DNA of 28,759 nt, from contig JBJHCF010000056.1 of the NCBI GenBank assembly GCA_050506795.1, positions 1 through 28,759 on the forward strand, read 5' to 3'. The stretch's first letter is position 1; each line of letters opens with the position of its first letter. Shown one piece after another: positions 3 to 8,185 of this stretch. Made by a program: the position numbers and the translations under genes. The stretch comes from Opitutia bacterium. GTDB lineage: Bacteria; Verrucomicrobiota; Verrucomicrobiia; Opitutales; T3Sed10-336. The notes beneath the pieces are model-generated. The model searched no databases, was not told the DNA's origin, and saw only the letters and a list, made by a program, of their open reading frames with translations.

Positions 3-2498
3 CGGGAGACGGATGCGTCGCTTGTCTTCTGGCGGGAGATCGGCGGCGAGTTCCTGCGCGCGGTCTGCCATCTGCCCGAGGGAACGGGCACGGACTTCAC
101 CTTGCCGACTCCGGATCCCGCCCGGATCGGCGAGTGGCTGCTCAATGCCCCGCCGATGCGTGGGGCGGAATACCTTTCCGCGGAAATTCTGGAGGAGGTG
201 TGGAAGCGCACGGCCGAGTGGACCCGCGCGCAAGTAAGTGAACACGGGAGAATCGCCGCGTTCCTGGAAAAGTATGCTCCCGCCTGGTCGCGGGTGGGAC
301 GGGTCACCGTTCACCTGGCGGAGAACAAAGGCGACGACGCCCACCCGTTCGCGTTCATGGCTTCCTACGCCTCGGGGCTGGGAACGTCCGGCCGCTTGCG
401 TCAACTCCCGCTCGGCAAGGCCCTCAAGGAGTATGCCGGCGCCAACAACAAGGCCGTGCTCCTGAGACTACTCGAACCGCTGCACCGCGCCTCGCAATCG
501 TGTCCCTTCATGGCCGATCTGGTCGAATCCGGCGACGTTTATCACCCGCTGGCCTGGACCCCTTCCGAGGCCCACACCTTCCTCCAATCCATTCCCCGCT
601 ACGAGGACGCCGGCCTGCTGGTTCGCCTGCCCGACTGGTGGCGCAAACGCGCCCGCCGGCCGAAGGTGACCGCCACCGTCGGCGATCGCTCCAAAGGCAA
701 GGTCGGCCTCGACGCCCTGCTCGATTTCAAGTTGGAGGTGATCGTCGACGGCGAGTCCCTCTCGCCGAAGGAGGTCGAGGAGCTGCTCCAGGGCGACGAC
801 GGACTGGTCCTTTTCCGCGGCCGGTGGATCGAGGTGGACCGCGAAAAACTGCGGGAAGCTCTCGCTCACTGGAAGGCGCTGGAAGCGGAGGGAAGTCTTT
901 CCTTCATCGAAGGGATGCGGCTGCTGGCGGGCGCGCCGGAGGATCTGAAAACGGCGGACGACCTCGAGGAGGAGCGGGAATGGGCCTTCGCCCAACCGGG
1001 AAAATGGTTCGCCGACACCCTTCGCCGTCTCTCCGATCCGGAGGCCGGAGAACCGCCCGCCGGCCTCCGCGCCACATTGCGTCCCTACCAGGCCCGGGGC
1101 CTCGAATGGCTCTGGTTTTGCGGGCGGACCGGAATCGGCGCCTGCCTCGCCGATGACATGGGTCTGGGAAAAACCGTCCAGGTCCTGGCCGCGCTCCTGC
1201 GCAAGCGGGAAACCGCTCCCGGCGAACCGCCCGCGCTCCTCGTCGTGCCCGCCTCGCTCATCGGCAACTGGAAGCGCGAGGCGGAGCGCTTCGCGCCCTC
1301 CCTTCGCCTCTTCATCGCCCACCGCTCCGAGACCCCGGAAGCGGATTTCACCGATCCCTCCCCCGCCCTCCTCGCCAAGGCGGACCTCGTCGTCACCACC
1401 TACGCGATGCTCCCGCGCCTTGCCTGGCCCGCGAAAACCCGCTGGAGTTGGATCATTCTCGACGAGGCACAGGCGATCAAAAACCCGAGCGCCCGCCAAA
1501 GTAAAACGGTGCGCAAGCTCGAAGCCCGCGCCCGTTTCGCCCTTACCGGCACGCCGGTCGAGAATCATTTGGGCGACCTCTGGTCGCTCTTCGATTTTAT
1601 CAATCCCGGCCTGCTCGGCACATCCTCTCGGTTCAAAGCCTTCGCGAAAAAACTGCGCGATCGAAACCACAACCACTACGCGCCGCTGCGCCGCCTCGTC
1701 GCCCCCTACATTCTCCGCCGCCTCAAAACCGACAAATCGGTCATCGCCGATCTTCCCGACAAGACCGAAATGAAAGTGTACTGCGGCCTCACCGCCGCCC
1801 AGGCGAAGCTCTACCAGCAAACCGCCCGGCAGCTTGAAAAGGAACTGGCATCGAGCGACGGCATAAAGCGGCGGGGACTTGTATTGGCGTACTTGATACG
1901 ATTCAAACAAATCTGCAATCACCCGGACCAGCTCACCAAATCCGGCGACTTCGCCGCCGGCGACAGCGCCAAATTCGCCCGACTCGCCGAACTTTGCGAG
2001 GAGATCGCATCACGCGGCGAGAAGCCCCTCGTCTTCACCCAGTTCCGGGAGATGACCGAACCGCTCGAAACGCACCTCGCCTCCGTCTTCGGACGGCCGG
2101 GGGCGATCCTCCACGGCGGCACTCCGGTCAAGGCGCGCTCCGGCCTGGTCGAGCGCTTCCAGCGCGACGATCCCGGCGCGCCCGCATTCATGGTTCTTTC
2201 CCTGAAAGCCGGCGGCACCGGGCTTAACCTCACCGCCGCCTCCCACGTCATCCATTTCGACCGCTGGTGGAACCCCGCCGTCGAAAACCAGGCCACCGAC
2301 CGCGCCTTCCGCATCGGCCAGCGCCGGAATGTGGTCGTGCATAAATTCATCACCTCGGGCACGCTCGAGGAAAAAATCGACGCCCTCATCACCGAGAAGC
2401 AGGAAACCGCGGACGCCATTCTCAGCGACGGCGCGGAAAAAGCGCTCACCGAGATGAACGACGACGAACTCCTCGACTTTATCCGTCTCAGCCTCTAG
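3..2498 (+). CDS. SNF2/SWI2-family helicase-like ATPase (5'-truncated by window edge)
   Basis: Motifs LADDMGLGKT (I), DEAQ (II), LTGTPVEN (III), LSLKAGGTGLNL (V) and QATDRAFRIGQ (VI). The frame is open upstream of 102 back to base 3 (RETDASLVFW...), so the true start is probably outside the window. Confidence 0.95.
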   Translation, partial: RETDASLVFWREIGGEFLRAVCHLPEGTGTDFTLPTPDPARIGEWLLNAPPMRGAEYLSAEILEEVWKRTAEWTRAQVSEHGRIAAFLEKYAPAWSRVGRVTVHLAENKGDDAHPFAFMASYASGLGTSGRLRQLPLGKALKEYAGANNKAVLLRLLEPLHRASQSCPFMADLVESGDVYHPLAWTPSEAHTFLQSIPRYEDAGLLVRLPDWWRKRARRPKVTATVGDRSKGKVGLDALLDFKLEVIVDGESLSPKEVEELLQGDDGLVLFRGRWIEVDREKLREALAHWKALEAEGSLSFIEGMRLLAGAPEDLKTADDLEEEREWAFAQPGKWFADTLRRLSDPEAGEPPAGLRATLRPYQARGLEWLWFCGRTGIGACLADDMGLGKTVQVLAALLRKRETAPGEPPALLVVPASLIGNWKREAERFAPSLRLFIAHRSETPEADFTDPSPALLAKADLVVTTYAMLPRLAWPAKTRWSWIILDEAQAIKNPSARQSKTVRKLEARARFALTGTPVENHLGDLWSLFDFINPGLLGTSSRFKAFAKKLRDRNHNHYAPLRRLVAPYILRRLKTDKSVIADLPDKTEMKVYCGLTAAQAKLYQQTARQLEKELASSDGIKRRGLVLAYLIRFKQICNHPDQLTKSGDFAAGDSAKFARLAELCEEIASRGEKPLVFTQFREMTEPLETHLASVFGRPGAILHGGTPVKARSGLVERFQRDDPGAPAFMVLSLKAGGTGLNLTAASHVIHFDRWWNPAVENQATDRAFRIGQRRNVVVHKFITSGTLEEKIDALITEKQETADAILSDGAEKALTEMNDDELLDFIRLSL

Positions 2499-2544
2499 CC
2501 AAAATTCCGAGTCATGAAATTCAAGTCCAAACCGGTCCCCCGTC

Positions 2545-2573
2545 CTTCGCTGCTTGAGCGCAGCGGGCGTAAG
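2545..2573. repeat. Partial right-type copy of the GxxExxY-flanking repeat
   Basis: cttcgctgcttgagcgcagcgggcgtaag; its core matches the copies at 2707-2748 and 3208-3249. Confidence 0.85.
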
Positions 2574-2595
2574 TCCTTATCCGCAAAAAAGTGAA

Positions 2596-2748
2596 CTCAC
2601 GCCGAGCAGCGAAGCAGCCAAGGGGGTAAAAACAACCTCTCCACAACCAGGGCGATCCCATAAATGAAAGCACATAAGATCATGTACAATCCCTCGTTTC
2701 AAAATTCCTCTGCTGCTTTGCTGCTTGAGCGCAGCGGGCGTGAGAACC
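2596..2748. repeat. Inverted repeat pair (REPIN-like) upstream of GxxExxY gene
   Basis: Left arm ctcacgccgagcagcgaagcagccaagg (2596-2623). Right arm cctctgctgctttgctgcttgagcgcagcgggcgtgagaacc (2707-2748) is approximately its reverse complement plus a 10-nt insert (gagcgcagcg). Confidence 0.85.
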
Positions 2749-2761
2749 AACCAAGAACATC

Positions 2762-3187
2762 ATGACTGAAAACGAAATCGGCAAAGAAGTGGTGGATGCC
2801 ACCATCAAAGTTCACAACTCCCTCGGACCGGGTCTTTTGGAAACGGTTTACGAAGCAGTCCTTGCCCGCGAGCTGACCGCGCGCGGATTTGACGTTGCGA
2901 GACAAGTGCCGGTGCCTATCAAATATGGGGGCGTTCAGTTTGACGAGGCCTTCCGAGCCGACCTGATCGTCAACGATAAAGTCATTCTCGAACTTAAGTC
3001 CGTTGAGAGTCTCGCCAAGGTTCACTATAAACAGGTTTTCACCTACCTGAAACTGAGGGGCAACACGCTGGGTTATCTCCTGAACTTCGGAGCCGGGCTG
3101 ATGAAAGATGGCATCGCCAGAATTGTTTGCGGCTTGGAGGAAAACATCTCACGCCAAGCAGCGAAACAGCCAACAAATGAGGCATGA
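2762..3187 (+). CDS. GxxExxY family protein (PD-(D/E)XK nuclease fold)
   Basis: GPGLLETVY signature, RADLIV...LELKSV catalytic-type motif, QVFTYLK and GYLLNFG. Confidence 0.93.
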   Translation: MTENEIGKEVVDATIKVHNSLGPGLLETVYEAVLARELTARGFDVARQVPVPIKYGGVQFDEAFRADLIVNDKVILELKSVESLAKVHYKQVFTYLKLRGNTLGYLLNFGAGLMKDGIARIVCGLEENISRQAAKQPTNEA

Positions 3188-3249
3188 GTTCGCATCCCAT
3201 CTTCCTTCCTTTGCTGCTCTGCTGCTTGAGCGCAGCGGGTGTGAGAACC
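3147..3249. repeat. Inverted repeat pair (REPIN-like) overlapping the 3' end of GxxExxY gene
   Basis: Left arm tctcacgccaagcagcgaaacagccaa (3147-3173) and right arm cctttgctgctctgctgcttgagcgcagcgggtgtgagaacc (3208-3249). A further stub ctcacgccaa lies at 3267-3276. Confidence 0.85.
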
Positions 3250-3295
3250 CATTCACAGGAACGAGCCTCACGCCAATCATAATTTCAATTCACTC

Positions 3296-4531
3296 ATGAG
3301 CTGGTTCTACCGACCCTACGTCTCCGTCGCCGAGCGCAAAGCGAAGGCTCTCAAGAAAGTCGCCGCCATGAAAAAGAAAGGCCAAACGGTAGAACCCGTG
3401 ACGGCCGCCACGCCGCGCGGCAAAATGGCTCTGAGCTTTTGGGGCGAGGCCTGGTGCGACCACCTCGAATCCTACAGCGACTTCGCCAACCGCCTTCCGC
3501 GCGGCCGCACTTACCTGCGCAACGGGTCCGTCCTCCACCTCGGCATCGACAGCGGCCGGGTCGAAGCCCTGGTCATGGGCTCGGAACTGTACAAACAGAC
3601 CGTTCGCATCGCCCCCCTCCCGAAGCCCAAATGGAACGCCCTGAAAAGACGCTGCCAGGGGAAAATCGGCTCCCTGGTCGAACTGTTGCAAGGCAAGATC
3701 TCGGGCGAGATCATGAGGATCGTCACCGACCGGAAGAACGGTCTGTTTCCCGGTCCCAGGGAAATCAAGTTGAGCTGTTCCTGCCCCGATTGGGCGGGCC
3801 TGTGCAAACACCTCGCCGCCATCCTCTACGGAGTCGGCGCCCGGCTCGACGACGCCCCCGAGCTGCTCTTCAAACTGCGCGGTGTCGATCACAACGAACT
3901 CATTCAAGCGGACGCCTCCGCCCTCGCCGAGACCGGACGTCCCTCCGCCGGCCGGCGCACCCTGGCGCCCGCGTCCCTCGGCGACGTCTTCGGCATCGAC
4001 CTGGACGATGAGGAAGCGGAAACGCCGCCGGTGCCCCCGCTCGCGAAGAAGCCCCGAAAAACCACCGGGAAGACACCGCGCAAGAAAAGCGCTCCCGCCG
4101 ATTCGGTCGCGAAAAAGGCAAAGGCCCGAACGACCAAAAAACCGGCGAAGAAATCAATTTCAACGGACGATCTCGATCGCCGGCGACAAAAGATTCTCCG
4201 AGAGTTGGATAGGCTGCTTGCCGCGACCAGGAAAAAGCCGCGCAAGAAAAAAGCAGCTCTGAAGAAACCGCCCCGCCAACGTCAGGCCGTGAAGGAAAAA
4301 GCGACTCCCGCCAAACAAAATGCCACGAAAAAGGTCGCACCCTTCAAACCCACCGCCGCCGCCGTGCGCAAGCTTCGCGAAGACCTCGGCCTCTCCCGCG
4401 CCGCCTTCTCCAAACGTCTCCGCGTTTCTCCCCAGACCGTCGCCAACTGGGAAGGCACGTCCGGCCCCATCAACCCGCAATTCCGAAGTCTGGCTGCACT
4501 GCGCGCGCTTCACCGCAAGACCCGCGAATAA
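3296..4531 (+). CDS. SWIM zinc-finger protein with Lys/Ala/Pro-rich linker and C-terminal XRE-type HTH
   Basis: NRLPRGRTY and CSCPDWAGLCKH (SWIM CxC...CxH); basic low-complexity segment; C-terminal VRKLREDLGLSRAAFSKRLRVSPQTVANWE helix-turn-helix. Confidence 0.9.
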   Translation: MSWFYRPYVSVAERKAKALKKVAAMKKKGQTVEPVTAATPRGKMALSFWGEAWCDHLESYSDFANRLPRGRTYLRNGSVLHLGIDSGRVEALVMGSELYKQTVRIAPLPKPKWNALKRRCQGKIGSLVELLQGKISGEIMRIVTDRKNGLFPGPREIKLSCSCPDWAGLCKHLAAILYGVGARLDDAPELLFKLRGVDHNELIQADASALAETGRPSAGRRTLAPASLGDVFGIDLDDEEAETPPVPPLAKKPRKTTGKTPRKKSAPADSVAKKAKARTTKKPAKKSISTDDLDRRRQKILRELDRLLAATRKKPRKKKAALKKPPRQRQAVKEKATPAKQNATKKVAPFKPTAAAVRKLREDLGLSRAAFSKRLRVSPQTVANWEGTSGPINPQFRSLAALRALHRKTRE

Positions 4532-4594: not shown

Positions 4595-5962
4595 ATGACC
4601 ACCGACGAATATCACGAGCTTAAGAAGGTGCTCTCGCGAATCGATGCGGACACCTTGGCGAGTTTCATCGTGGATCTCGCCGTTCAGAATGAAACCGTCG
4701 CGGAGGCGACGGTGCTGCTGTCGCAGCGCGGGAACCCGGAGGCGTGTTTCAAGGCGATCAAGGCGCGCATTTCGGGGTTGCGGCGGGGCAAGCGTTTCTA
4801 CCACTACCGTGAGGCGGGGTATTTGGAACAAAAGATTCATGTGATTCTCGAAGCCATCGAACGGGATCTGCTTCCGATCGCCCCGCAACGGGCCATGGAG
4901 GCGGTCGGCGAGCTAATTCGGTCGGACGCCGCCGTGATGGAACGGGTGGATGATTCTTCAGGGGGAATGGGAATGGTTTTCCGGAAAGCCTGCGAGCTTT
5001 TTGCCATTGCCGCCGAAGCGGCCGGTAAACCGGCGGAGGCGGAGTCGTGGTTTTTTCGGTTGGCGGAAGAAAATGACTACGGAGTGCGCGACGCACTCTT
5101 CGACTACGTTCCACGTATTCTTGGAAAGGAAAGCCTGGAACGTTTAATCGCAGATTGGCGCGAATCGATTGCCGGAAAGGATTTCAAGGAAGCCTTTACA
5201 GAAGCGATACGTTTGAGTCAGACGGCGAAAGCCATGGGAGATCCCGAGCTTTTCGAAGAGGCGAAGCTTTGCGGAGAAACGCCGGAGTCGTATCCCGCGA
5301 TCGCCCTCGATGTGGCGCGCTTCTACCTCGAATGCGGTCGGCCTGATGAGGCGCTCGCGAAGGTGCCCGCATCGGAAAACCTTCGAAGTCATTGGGGATT
5401 CGACGAACTGCTGGTGGAAATCTACCGGGCGCTGGGCGATGAATCCGCTCAGGCGGAAATTCACTTTCGTCAGTTCGAAATGTTGGCGAGCGCAAAGGAA
5501 GCGCGGAACTATCTTCAGACGATACCTCAAAGCCGACAAGAAGCCGAACGGCAGCGGTTGGAGAGGATGGTGTCGGAAGGTGAATACCGTCCAATGGTCA
5601 AGGCCCGCTTTTTCACCGCGATGGGTAAACCGGCGATCGCGGCTTCGATCATCGAAGAAAATGCCGAATCCTTCAGCGAAACGTACTACTCGTTGACGGA
5701 GCTCGCCAAACCGCTCGCCAAGCTCCATCCACGCGCGGCCACCCTTCTCTATCGCGAAGCGGTGGAACAGACCCTGGCTGAAGGAAAGTCAAAAAACTAC
5801 CGCCACGCCGTTCGCTACATCCGGCAACTCGAAAAACTCGCTGAAGCCGTGAAAAATTGGAGCGCCATTCCCAACCATGACGCATGGCTTGACGGAATTC
5901 GCTCCCGGCATGCCCGCAAGTCGGCATTCTGGAAGGCGATGGGCGAGGCGTGTTCTAATTGA
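4595..5962 (+). CDS. All-helical hypothetical protein (DUF6880-like)
   Basis: 455-aa ORF with ISGLRRGKRF, ERVDDSSGGMG and C-terminal YRHAVRY...IRSRHARKSAFW, recalled from this family. The family label is from memory. Confidence 0.7.
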   Translation: MTTDEYHELKKVLSRIDADTLASFIVDLAVQNETVAEATVLLSQRGNPEACFKAIKARISGLRRGKRFYHYREAGYLEQKIHVILEAIERDLLPIAPQRAMEAVGELIRSDAAVMERVDDSSGGMGMVFRKACELFAIAAEAAGKPAEAESWFFRLAEENDYGVRDALFDYVPRILGKESLERLIADWRESIAGKDFKEAFTEAIRLSQTAKAMGDPELFEEAKLCGETPESYPAIALDVARFYLECGRPDEALAKVPASENLRSHWGFDELLVEIYRALGDESAQAEIHFRQFEMLASAKEARNYLQTIPQSRQEAERQRLERMVSEGEYRPMVKARFFTAMGKPAIAASIIEENAESFSETYYSLTELAKPLAKLHPRAATLLYREAVEQTLAEGKSKNYRHAVRYIRQLEKLAEAVKNWSAIPNHDAWLDGIRSRHARKSAFWKAMGEACSN

Positions 5963-6312: not shown

Positions 6313-6349
6313 CACCCGTACCATTTGAATTTATTTATTATCTCAAATG
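6309..6349 (+). promoter_or_regulatory. Putative promoter and operator of the Xre-RES operon
   Basis: TTGACA at 6309-6314, AT-rich -10 region at 6331-6341, and inverted repeat CATTTGA-N14-TCAAATG (6322-6349) that includes the ATG. Confidence 0.6.
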
Positions 6350-6814
6350 AAACAAACGCCCCAACATGCATCCCTGGTCGCCGAGCCCGAAGCGCTTTAC
6401 GGACGAACTTTCGGGAATAAATCGCCCAAGGCACAAGAGCGATTTCGGGCCGACAGCTTGGTCGACCGCATCCGCGCGGGGTTGCCGGTCTCCGAGTTCG
6501 ACACCCTGCGTGGCCTCCTGCAAATCCCGGCGGAAGAATTGTCCGGGTACCTGAACCTCTCGCGCAGCACCCTGATGCGGCGCCGAAGGAGCGGGAGACT
6601 GGCGCCAGACGAGTCCGACCGCGTCATTCGTTATGCCCGACTCTTCGGCATGGCCGCGGACGTACTGGGCGGACACGACGAAGCCCGAGCCTGGCTTCGC
6701 CAACCCGCCCGGGCTCTCGGCGGGACCGTTCCCCTGGATTTCGCGCAAACCGAAGCCGGCGCGCGGGAGGTGGAGAACATCCTCGGACGGATCGAGTCCG
6801 GAGTGTACGCGTGA
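6347..6814 (+). CDS. Xre/MbcA/ParS-type antitoxin
   Basis: HTH (LNLSRSTLMRRR), LAPDESDRVIR, ARAWLRQPARALGGTVPLD and terminal LGRIESGVYA; stop overlaps the toxin start (GTGA). Confidence 0.93.
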   Translation: MKQTPQHASLVAEPEALYGRTFGNKSPKAQERFRADSLVDRIRAGLPVSEFDTLRGLLQIPAEELSGYLNLSRSTLMRRRRSGRLAPDESDRVIRYARLFGMAADVLGGHDEARAWLRQPARALGGTVPLDFAQTEAGAREVENILGRIESGVYA

Positions 6815-7302
6815 CCGTAACAATCTGGCGCCTGGTCAAAGCCCGGCACGCGGGACAAGCCTTCGACGGCGAAGGCGCCCGGCGTTACGGAGGTCGTTGG
6901 AACTCACCCGGCACCCCAATGGTGTACGCCTCCGAAAGCCGCGCCCTCGCCGCCCTCGAACTCCTGGTCCATGTTCCGGCGAACCTCTTGTCGCAACCGT
7001 TTCGGTTTTTTCGAATCGACATTCCACCCCGGTTCATTCGCTCCCTCACCCCAGGTCCCTCGCCCCACGCCCCCCTCCCCTCCGGCTGGAACGCCCCACT
7101 GATCTCACCCGCAACCCAGGCGTTAGGAGACGAATGGATTGCCTCCGGCCGGAGCGTCGTGCTGCGGGTACCCAGCGCCGTCATCCCCGAAGAAAACAAC
7201 TATCTCATCAATCCCGCCCACCCAGATTTCAAAAAACTCGCAATCGCCGAACCGGAACCGTTCTCGTTCGACCCGAGGATCGCGGTAAAATCGAAACTGT
7301 GA
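6811..7302 (+). CDS. RES-domain toxin (NAD+-degrading/ADP-ribosylating class)
   Basis: FDGEGARRYGGRWNSPG, VYASES..LAALE, VPSAVIPEENNYLINPAHPDF. Confidence 0.93.
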   Translation: MTVTIWRLVKARHAGQAFDGEGARRYGGRWNSPGTPMVYASESRALAALELLVHVPANLLSQPFRFFRIDIPPRFIRSLTPGPSPHAPLPSGWNAPLISPATQALGDEWIASGRSVVLRVPSAVIPEENNYLINPAHPDFKKLAIAEPEPFSFDPRIAVKSKL

Positions 7303-7797: not shown

Positions 7798-7963
7798 GGC
7801 TTTTTCCCCGGTTCCGTTCGGTCACGATACTGAAACGCAGTCACCCGAAAGGTCAACCTTGCCCTAGGAGGAACGGCAATCGGATAAGGCCATTGATCCA
7901 AGCCGCGCAGTCCTACCTTGGCAAGTATACCAAAACCACGCCCGGTTTAAACCGGTGAAGGTT

Positions 7964-8035
7964 CTCACACGGAGCCACGGAGCTCACGGAGGTGCGTCCT
8001 GTAAAAATCTCCGTGACTTTGTGGCTCCGTGTGAG
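7964..8035. repeat. Inverted repeat pair with 8-nt-periodic arms
   Basis: ctcacacggagccacggagctcacggag (7964-7991) and ctccgtgactttgtggctccgtgtgag (8009-8035). Confidence 0.85.
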
Positions 8036-8185
8036 TCCAATTTCCGTTGTATTTTTTTTGCTTCGTCAAACGATGAGCCGCCTTAACCGTGCCATTCGCC
8101 CCAGGAGTCTGTCGAGCTTCGCCGAGAGCTTCCTGAAACCAATACAAGCTCGCCACCGGCGGCGTTGCCAAAAAGAATCGCCGCC

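Follow-up and report, generated by a model that had tools for sequence, protein, structure and literature searches.

A GxxExxY nuclease gene framed by hairpin-forming arms and inserted at an SNF2-SWIM gene junction of an Opitutia bacterium

Repetitive extragenic palindromic (REP) sequences occur as inverted pairs that form hairpins (REPINs) and go together with tyrosine transposase genes (REP-associated tyrosine transposases, RAYTs), as described by Bertels and Rainey 2011 (PMC3116915). In the intervening sequence (IVS) of the Coxiella 23S rRNA an open reading frame (ORF) for an S23p/four-helix-bundle protein lies inside a terminal stem, and the origin of the element is left unexplained (PMC4990558). 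Here we describe a locus that shares features with both, in a stretch of 28,759 nucleotides (hereafter the window) that makes up an entire 28.8-kb contig of an Opitutia bacterium with a 4.9-Mb genome of 59% GC. Between the genes for an SNF2-family helicase and a SWIM zinc-finger protein it carries a GxxExxY gene surrounded by inverted repeat arms. Comparison with relatives shows that the block 2518-3293 is an insertion into the overlapping ATGA stop/start of the SNF2-SWIM pair, and comparison across phyla shows that it belongs to a family of hairpin-armed GxxExxY cassettes, in which the gene and its arms are found together at tight junctions between genes across many phyla. We propose, with a probability of roughly 0.5, that the block is a copy of a selfish cassette and that it is moved through the action of its own PD-(D/E)XK nuclease on the arms. 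The genes and repeat arms of the locus are listed below.

102-2498, + strand: SNF2-family helicase gene, the upstream host gene (PF00176 217.7 bits, PF12419, PF00271)
2512-2517, + strand: left TCATGA word, at the left edge of the insert and, by junction comparison, a remnant of the former ATGA stop/start overlap
2518-3293, + strand: inserted hairpin-armed GxxExxY cassette, 776 bp (782 bp counting one TCATGA copy)
2544-2573, + strand: arm R1, long type, reverse orientation
2596-2623, + strand: arm L1, short type, units CGCCGAG, AGCGAAG and AGCCAAG, pairs with R2 across an 83-nt loop
2707-2744, + strand: arm R2, long type, four units, with the start codon 17 nt downstream of the arm end
2762-3187, + strand: GxxExxY gene, 141 aa, minimal PD-(D/E)XK nuclease (TIGR04256 135.1 bits, PF13366 138.3 bits)
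3148-3173, + strand: arm L2, within the last codons of the GxxExxY gene, pairs with R3 across a 34-nt loop
3208-3245, + strand: arm R3, long type, 93% identity to R2 over 44 nt
3267-3279, + strand: arm L3, a 13-nt stub
3294-3299, + strand: right TCATGA word, including the SWIM start codon (3296-3298)
3296-4531, + strand: SWIM zinc-finger plus helix-turn-helix (HTH) gene, the downstream host gene (PF04434, PF01381)

Four relatives have contigs that span the SNF2-SWIM junction (G006, G026, G038 and G043; genomes are denoted by G, contigs by C and loci by L, and G000 is the genome of the window). In two of them (G006:C108 and G026:C93) the SNF2 stop overlaps the SWIM start in the sequence ATGA with nothing in between, and judged from this overlap the two genes are translationally coupled there. 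The junction of G038:C64 holds a 20-nt spacer that is armless. The flanks of G006 are 95-97% identical to the window in SNF2 and 88% identical in SWIM at the nucleotide level; its SNF2 protein ends in ...IRLDLNQTEKSV, and the one of the window ends in IRLSL. The fourth relative has an 84-nt spacer (G043:C9:3139-3224) with one L-like arm (CTCACGCCAGGCAGGCAG...), and its SNF2 end is shortened as in the window (...RLSL*). With this solo arm and the window-like SNF2 end the spacer is probably what a cassette left behind as a scar when it was lost. Both states of the junction were also detected in metagenomes. Contigs from runs X1 and X4 join position 2489 to 3307 without the insert, one of them coming from a soda-lake run and the other, from a relative with 8 differences in 101 nt, from the sample that may be the source. 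In run X2, another soda-lake run, an 831-nt contig with the filled junction has 47 differences from the window (94% identity). The metagenome contigs also hold rearranged forms, with an extra 171-nt unit or with L1 set directly before the gene. The GC content of the insert is 51.9%, vs. 62.6-64.8% in the flanking genes. An earlier reading of the window (the original prediction) had taken a unit of ~730 bp to be an insertion and had proposed to look for an empty SNF2-SWIM junction in relatives; such junctions were found in three of them (G006, G026 and G038), and together with the solo arm in G043, the empty and filled metagenome contigs and the GC content of the insert they bear the claim out. 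A stable SNF2-GxxExxY-SWIM order without repeats, which would have spoken against it, was not seen.

The word TCATGA is present at both ends of the insert (2512-2517 and 3294-3299), so that the former stop and the former start are both retained, and the pair may represent a target duplication of 4-6 bp. A second filled/empty pair, in this genus, consists of a hairpin at C30:63076 and the corresponding empty site in G002; this insertion, too, is at an ATGA overlap and has TGA on both sides. A third insertion lies in a 4-nt spacer (tcgc) between a stop and a start. The inserted DNA reaches 14-37 nt past the arms. As for further cassettes, the genes flanking the one on C7 are apart in most relatives, and around the one on C61 the relatives are too diverged for placing boundaries.

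All six alternating arms that the original prediction had described around the gene were located (R1, L1, R2, L2, R3 and the L3 stub). An L arm is built from CTCA followed by CGCCGAG-C, AGCGAAG-C and AGCCAAG, and an R arm is the complement of this plus ~10 bases (AGCGCAGCGG), which are equivalent to a further, fourth unit and by themselves can form a mini-hairpin of 6 bp. This agrees with the earlier description, in that L arms start with CTCAC, R arms finish with GTGAG, the units are 8 nt long (the last one being AGCCAAG-G) and the R arms carry an extra of ~10 nt. At up to 3 mismatches the 25-nt R core has three matches in the window and the 26-nt L arm has two, and none was obtained in 100 shuffles in either case. 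RNA folding supported the two long hairpins that had been proposed, L1-R2 (−50.7 kcal/mol, z −3.3, equalled by 1 of 200 shuffles) and L2-R3 (−37.1 kcal/mol, z −2.4, 3 of 200). The R1-L1 hairpin reached −33.2 kcal/mol (z −2.9, equalled by none of 200), and the R3-L3 hairpin (−23.7 kcal/mol, z −1.4) is within chance, with 17 of 200 shuffles as good. As also predicted, the final codons of the gene read into an arm: the ORF at 2762-3187 covers L2, and in the structure model the residues encoded by the arm (125-141) form a disordered tail (pLDDT <50). A generic gapped inverted-repeat score, given by the outer L1/R3 pair, was 23 at this locus, a value equal to the 95th percentile when 1000 places were drawn at random from the genome. 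What is beyond chance here is that the arms are repeated, more than their complementarity by itself, and the case for the window locus is therefore based on this repetition and on the genome comparisons. Between 2400 and 3400 an Rfam search gave no match, and a search for + strand terminators found none.

The same arrangement was found far beyond this genome. With a three-sequence query 80 GxxExxY loci were fetched from many phyla, of which 78 were usable and 2 had too short flanks. Bracketing inverted repeats with a score of at least 30 were present at 60 of the 78 loci, and controls shifted within these loci reached that score in 1 of 281 cases. This is the enrichment of repeats beside GxxExxY genes that the original prediction had called for. 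The genome of the window has six GxxExxY paralogs, all of them flanked by inverted arms when inspected by eye; five of the six score at least 30, vs. 3 of 1000 random genome places. The arm sequence differs from paralog to paralog and the build is common to all. An arm consists of three to four tandem units with the core CRCNRAG, the distance between units being 8 nt in 42 cases and 9 nt in 32, and the core of the window arms is the variant MGCSRAG. Among the 60 loci with arms the order is L-gene-R in 46, R-gene-L in 3 and ambiguous in 11. A layout of hairpin, gene and hairpin is seen in the window, on C48 and on C61. The long arm is the 3' arm in the window and the 5' arm in the nearest homologs (L029 and G016), and the hairpins are thus inverted relative to the gene.

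In 46 cassettes the two arms were compared with each other position by position. Mismatches at unit positions 1 to 7 numbered 0/141, 8/141, 1/138, 24/130, 15/130, 1/130 and 0/130, and those in the spacers 104/563 (about 18%); the agreement between arms is near-perfect at the C, C, A and G positions of the core, and positions 2, 4 and 5 vary. On the sense strand 72 of the mismatches were G·T and 66 were A·C (p = 0.67), i.e. there was no excess of G·U. A conserved core, drifting spacers and no G·U bias would fit better with arms that are arrays of protein sites in the DNA than with stems in RNA.

The protein encoded between the arms was matched by TIGR04256 with 135.1 bits (cut-off 35) over profile positions 2-116 of 116 and by PF13366 (PDDEXK_3) with 138.3 bits (cut-off 22), so that the identity of the gene was called correctly from the start, as were its SNF2 (102-2498) and SWIM plus HTH (3296-4531) neighbours. 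The motif residues are G24, E27, Y30, D67, E77, K79, Q91 and Y95; in 84 sequences G24, E27, Y30 and K79 are invariant and D67, E77, Q91 and Y95 are conserved to at least 90%. None of the invariant or 90%-conserved columns of these sequences is a cysteine. In Cas4 four conserved cysteines hold an Fe-S cluster, and the lack of a conserved cysteine indicates a GxxExxY protein without such a cluster. The AlphaFold2 model (mean pLDDT 89.7) recovered the restriction-endonuclease-like fold, with the Cas4 protein SSO0001 and the nuclease domain of BpuSI as the nearest folds (both Z 8.0). When the PDB was searched by sequence with a six-paralog profile, the sole hit was T7 endonuclease I at a non-significant E of 0.25-0.65, and PADLOC and PHROGs contained no family for the nuclease or the insert. 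Prediction of a homodimer (residues 1-124, two copies) gave a score of 0.00, which speaks neither way. A publication that names GxxExxY does so in passing, and a PD-(D/E)XK survey gives its function as 'Unknown'. A literature search for two-unit arm words, with a coverage that does not extend to subscription-only papers, returned no match, and we could not find the hairpin-armed GxxExxY cassette family described in print.

Dispersal of the arms was followed within the genome and across the order. This genome holds 112 triple-unit arms of a sister type (CRCNRA[GT]), vs. 0 in the reversed sequence, and 12 of the 112 are near a gene. Adjacent arms are paired as L..R in 45 cases and as R..L in 11. 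In 101 genomes of the order at least four triple-unit arms were present in 40 of the 50 genomes with a GxxExxY gene, vs. 1 of the 51 without, and gene count and arm count are correlated (Spearman 0.79). The highest arm count, 673, was found in a genome with 3 genes. Gene-less genomes of at least 2.5 Mb, tallied by hand from the size and count columns, are likewise armless with G097 as the single exception. By these counts the arms are shown to be confined almost wholly to gene-carrying genomes, a pattern that the original prediction had proposed to look for.

Comparisons within one genus and within this genome show that cassettes decay in place to gene-less hairpins. In G001 (C20:700-1600, L112) the same site carries a copy of the cassette at C7:96600-97400 (L018) with an internal deletion of 279 nt; one end of the deletion is in the arm unit CACAAAG and the other is inside the gene at CACGAAG, where the conserved H..Q is encoded. 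In the arrays on C48 and C12, units without the gene retain its start. Tandem arrays in this genome (G000) are located as follows.

C48:34413-36002: tandem array with an intact gene
C25:33072-33874: tandem array
C38:19-551: tandem array
C38:6727-6888: tandem array
C62:14151-14417: tandem array

The repeating unit of the arrays on C48, C25, C38 and C62 is composed of an L arm, a loop of 98-119 nt (~250 nt in two cases on C25), an R arm and a spacer of 91-93 nt. These spacers retain the leader and the start codon of the GxxExxY gene, the array on C48 being the only one with an intact gene, and several of the arrays reach contig ends. Differences at one place were also found in the spacers on both sides of a gene on C9 (C9:52118-52244 and C9:54300-54900), which from its start sequence we take to be mnmG (gidA)-like. 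When these spacers were compared with G001:C39 and G002:C253 (L122 and L129-L131), the hairpin types (CACGGAG, CACGAAG and CGCAGAG) differed among the three genomes of one genus, one such spacer being that upstream of the gene; the hairpins at a single site seem to have been turned over or replaced.

Taken together, we regard an action of the nuclease on the arms, by which the cassette is moved, as the best-supported inference, at about even odds. The cassette would be a gene for a PD-(D/E)XK nuclease of ~125 aa that travels with inverted arms. In the DNA each arm would act as a series of sites to which a protein binds, and this protein would most likely be the nuclease that the cassette encodes. 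By cutting at or near the arms this enzyme would allow host repair or replication to copy the cassette, and gene-less derivatives of it, into new junctions, and its relation to the arms would resemble that of RAYTs to REPINs, with the chemistry of a PD-(D/E)XK enzyme. A homing-like route of cutting and repair seems more plausible than true transposition, since a protein of this size gives no indication of strand transfer. In a wider and distinctly more tentative proposal, GxxExxY cassettes in general would be undescribed autonomous selfish DNA, whose nuclease recognises CRCNRAG arrays in DNA and drives the copying of the cassette and of gene-less hairpins into the tightest gene junctions of operons, with a preference for the ATGA overlap, which would be duplicated so that both host genes retain their stop and start; the S23p cassettes and the 23S IVS would then be a sister class with the same architecture, and an explanation would be at hand for elements whose origin has been open since 1990.

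Besides the GxxExxY cassettes, this genome contains other repeats and enzymes with a bearing on these proposals. A miniature element of ~300 bp is dispersed in 25 copies, one of them in the window (7850-8150, with its hairpin at 7968-8031) and the 24 others e.g. at C1:57437, C18:37341 and C9:27741. It has terminal inverted repeats (TIRs; GAATGGCAC-TCGGTTAAGG... / ...CCTTAACCGAGT-GCCATTC) and in its centre a triple-unit hairpin of the CACGGAG type with a loop of 17 nt (16-23 nt over the 25 hairpins). G006:C108 is uninformative for the hairpin at 7968, as its synteny ends past the SWIM gene. Seven four-helix-bundle genes (TIGR02436, S23p-type) were found; the arms of four score at least 30 and those of a fifth 27. 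The arms are made of 7-nt units that differ per locus (CAGGAGT, GGCGGAT, GGGGCGA and AAAAGGT) and share no sequence. Four-helix-bundle loci and the two integron integrase genes, which are near contig ends, have the following positions.

C2:156836-157144: four-helix-bundle locus L022
C12:78154-78465: four-helix-bundle locus L023
C21:17176-17493: four-helix-bundle locus L025
C25:57037-57354: four-helix-bundle locus L026
C46:37144-38076: integron integrase gene, 412.7 bits, above the curated cut-off
C50:685-1620: integron integrase gene, 382.2 bits, above the curated cut-off

Two further observations concern the window downstream of the SWIM gene. A DUF6880 gene follows at 4595-5962, in a part where the synteny of G006 with the window has stopped. 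An Xre/MbcA/ParS-type antitoxin (6347-6814) and a RES-domain toxin (6811-7302) are encoded by overlapping genes at 6347-7302 and form an ordinary toxin-antitoxin pair.

Several observations weigh against a nuclease that acts on its own arms. The arm variant of the window has 0 copies in the genome outside 2544-3279 at up to 4-5 mismatches, so the window copy itself is no dispersed REPIN family, and of the REPIN-like dispersal in the original prediction the part that stands is at the level of the class, where arms are tied to the gene (40/50 vs. 1/51). Kinship among the 101 genomes inflates the association of gene and arms, and so in part does genome size, as many gene-less genomes are small. 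On a quick protein tree of ~120 residues, arm position 2 required 11 changes, vs. 14.6 after shuffling, with a count as low in 3 of 300 shuffles, and positions 4-5 required 22, vs. 25.9 (5 of 300); the covariation of repeat sequence and protein phylogeny, which the original prediction had proposed to test, is thus weak, and this counts against a tight specificity of protein for arm. The comparison for G·U wobble had no positive control. The fold matches (Z up to 8) are generic for PD-(D/E)XK proteins, and a function cannot be assigned from the model. About 25 gene-less hairpins are centred in the TIR-bounded miniature element and could spread without the nuclease, which means that hairpins of the CRCNRAG class can move as passengers, and the analogous arms of the four-helix-bundle genes, which encode no nuclease, imply that the architecture does not need one. 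As related arrays in G016 have tcATGAA before every arm, TCATGA may be the element's own sequence rather than a target duplication. A general target duplication is unsupported, with direct repeats of at least 4 nt beside the arms in 9 of 60 loci (15%), vs. 7.3% for mismatched pairs.

Part of these observations would be accounted for if the cassette were an RNA module like the IVS, with arms that act in the transcript through RNase III cutting or shielding of mRNA ends and so let a foreign gene sit in an operon; the nuclease would then be cargo with another role and the mover unrelated. The layout is that of the Coxiella IVS, whose ORF lies within a 28-bp terminal stem cut by RNase III (PMC4990558), the periodic inverted arms of the S23p-type genes (four of seven at least 30, a fifth 27) point in the same direction, the cassette is within an operon with no + strand terminator found at 2400-3400, and the hairpins are stable as RNA folds. 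However, G·U is not significantly commoner than A·C on the sense strand (72 vs. 66), the mismatches spare the core letters instead of following the needs of pairing, the cassette is outside rRNA, and the near-restriction of arms to gene-carrying genomes would be left unexplained. We consider such an RNA module unlikely. Less likely still is that gene and hairpins are passenger DNA, moved by a transposase of an insertion sequence (IS) acting on outer TIRs, by a Y1 enzyme of the RAYT/IS200 type, or by an integron integrase that uses the hairpins as attC sites. The 25 hairpins in the conserved ~300-bp element, including that at 7968-8031, would be an example of such carriage, and the genome does encode two integron integrases above cut-off and has 16 Y1_Tnp (PF01797) matches. 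Nevertheless, arms were within 1.5 kb at 1 of these 16 matches, and the window gene belongs to PF13366, not to PF01797. Of the two integrase contigs, C50 is free of CRCNRAG arms. On C46 a single two-unit arm is present at a distance of ~6 kb from the integrase, and the cassette region beside this integrase has attC-like repeats unrelated in sequence to CRCNRAG arms. Around the window cassette TIRs like those of the miniature element were not seen by eye, no search for them having been made; the insert contains no transposase, its sole ORF with a family match being the nuclease, and across the 101 genomes arms are tied to the gene.

A benefit to the host is the least probable explanation that we weighed, and we give it little weight. 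A small nuclease, for example one of defence or repair, would be exchanged often, with hairpins as expression signals or recombination hot spots, and would adjoin the ZorD/DpdE-like SNF2 helicase as its partner. It is true that the SNF2 protein matches PADLOC models of defence helicases (DpdE 396.6 bits, ZorD 392 bits) and that the nuclease has conserved catalytic residues. On the other hand, the SNF2-SWIM pair is without the gene in three relatives and these three clean junctions are armless, other paralogs lie between unrelated housekeeping genes (which we take to be gmd/fcl and exbB-type genes), neither PADLOC nor PHROGs has a family that matches the protein, and gene-less copies greatly outnumber genes. 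A nuclease that acts on its own arms remains, at the even odds given above, the reading that we prefer.

GxxExxY is a large family with its function listed as 'Unknown', and if the nuclease truly mobilises the arms, many phyla would contain a mobile element that is built on a new chemistry. Much of the intergenic hairpin repeats in those genomes, up to 673 arms in one genome of the order, would be explained in this way, and a model that can be tested would be available for the intervening sequences of 23S rRNA that carry an ORF. For annotation it matters that such cassettes split translationally coupled genes and append disordered tails to ORFs. A sequence-specific minimal nuclease with a modular target of 8-9-nt repeats is also a potential tool. 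New in this analysis are the series of empty, filled and scar states at one operon junction, the pattern of core vs. spacer mismatches, the lack of G·U bias, the linkage over 101 genomes, and the negative tests for target duplication, RAYT and integrons.

How the cassette compares with known systems depends on the feature that is considered. With miniature inverted-repeat transposable elements and IS elements it shares inverted ends, filled and empty sites and gene-less miniatures that arise by internal deletion; unlike them it has no transposase and no consistent target duplication (15% vs. 7%), and the insert extends 14-37 nt past the arms. Integron cassettes, too, are promoterless small genes between imperfect hairpin-forming repeats, and the order hairpin, gene, hairpin recurs in the window, on C48 and on C61, but the window locus is not beside an integrase and in most loci (L-gene-R, 46/60) the gene is inside the hairpin. 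At the level of the fold the protein is like Cas4/RecB-type nucleases, with SSO0001 (4ic1; Foldseek E 4.4e-4, VIA Z 8.0, 99 residues) and Pcal_0546 (4r5q) as nearest structures and the motif set E...D...ExK...QxxxY in common with Cas4; the likeness goes no further than the fold, as the protein has ~125 aa, no conserved cysteine and no CRISPR context.

The 23S IVS (PMC4990558) resembles the cassette in its small ORF within terminal inverted repeats and in a sporadic, horizontal-looking spread, and the four-helix-bundle genes of this genome carry analogous periodic arms. It differs in its place, as the IVS is in helix 25 or 45 of the rRNA and the cassette is between protein genes. The cargo here is a nuclease, the arms have 8-9-nt units with a conserved core whereas the four-helix-bundle cassettes of this genome have 7-nt units that are not shared, and the GxxExxY arms give no sign of selection for RNA pairing. 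As to a single stem around the ORF, the window gene is between two hairpins (the outer L1/R3 pair scores 23), and in 46 of 60 other loci the gene is inside an L...R stem. Compared with REPIN-RAYT systems (PMC3116915), the enzyme is a PD-(D/E)XK protein instead of an HUH/Y1 transposase. The GxxExxY arms are built from 3-4 units of 8-9 nt with one core across phyla, whereas a REP is a species-specific palindrome. Several paralogs are present per genome (six here), each with its own arms, and the arm version of the window is undispersed. In common with REPIN-RAYT, inverted pairs form hairpins, gene-less copies are extragenic, a small enzyme gene is flanked by the repeats and the repeats follow the gene (PMC3116915).

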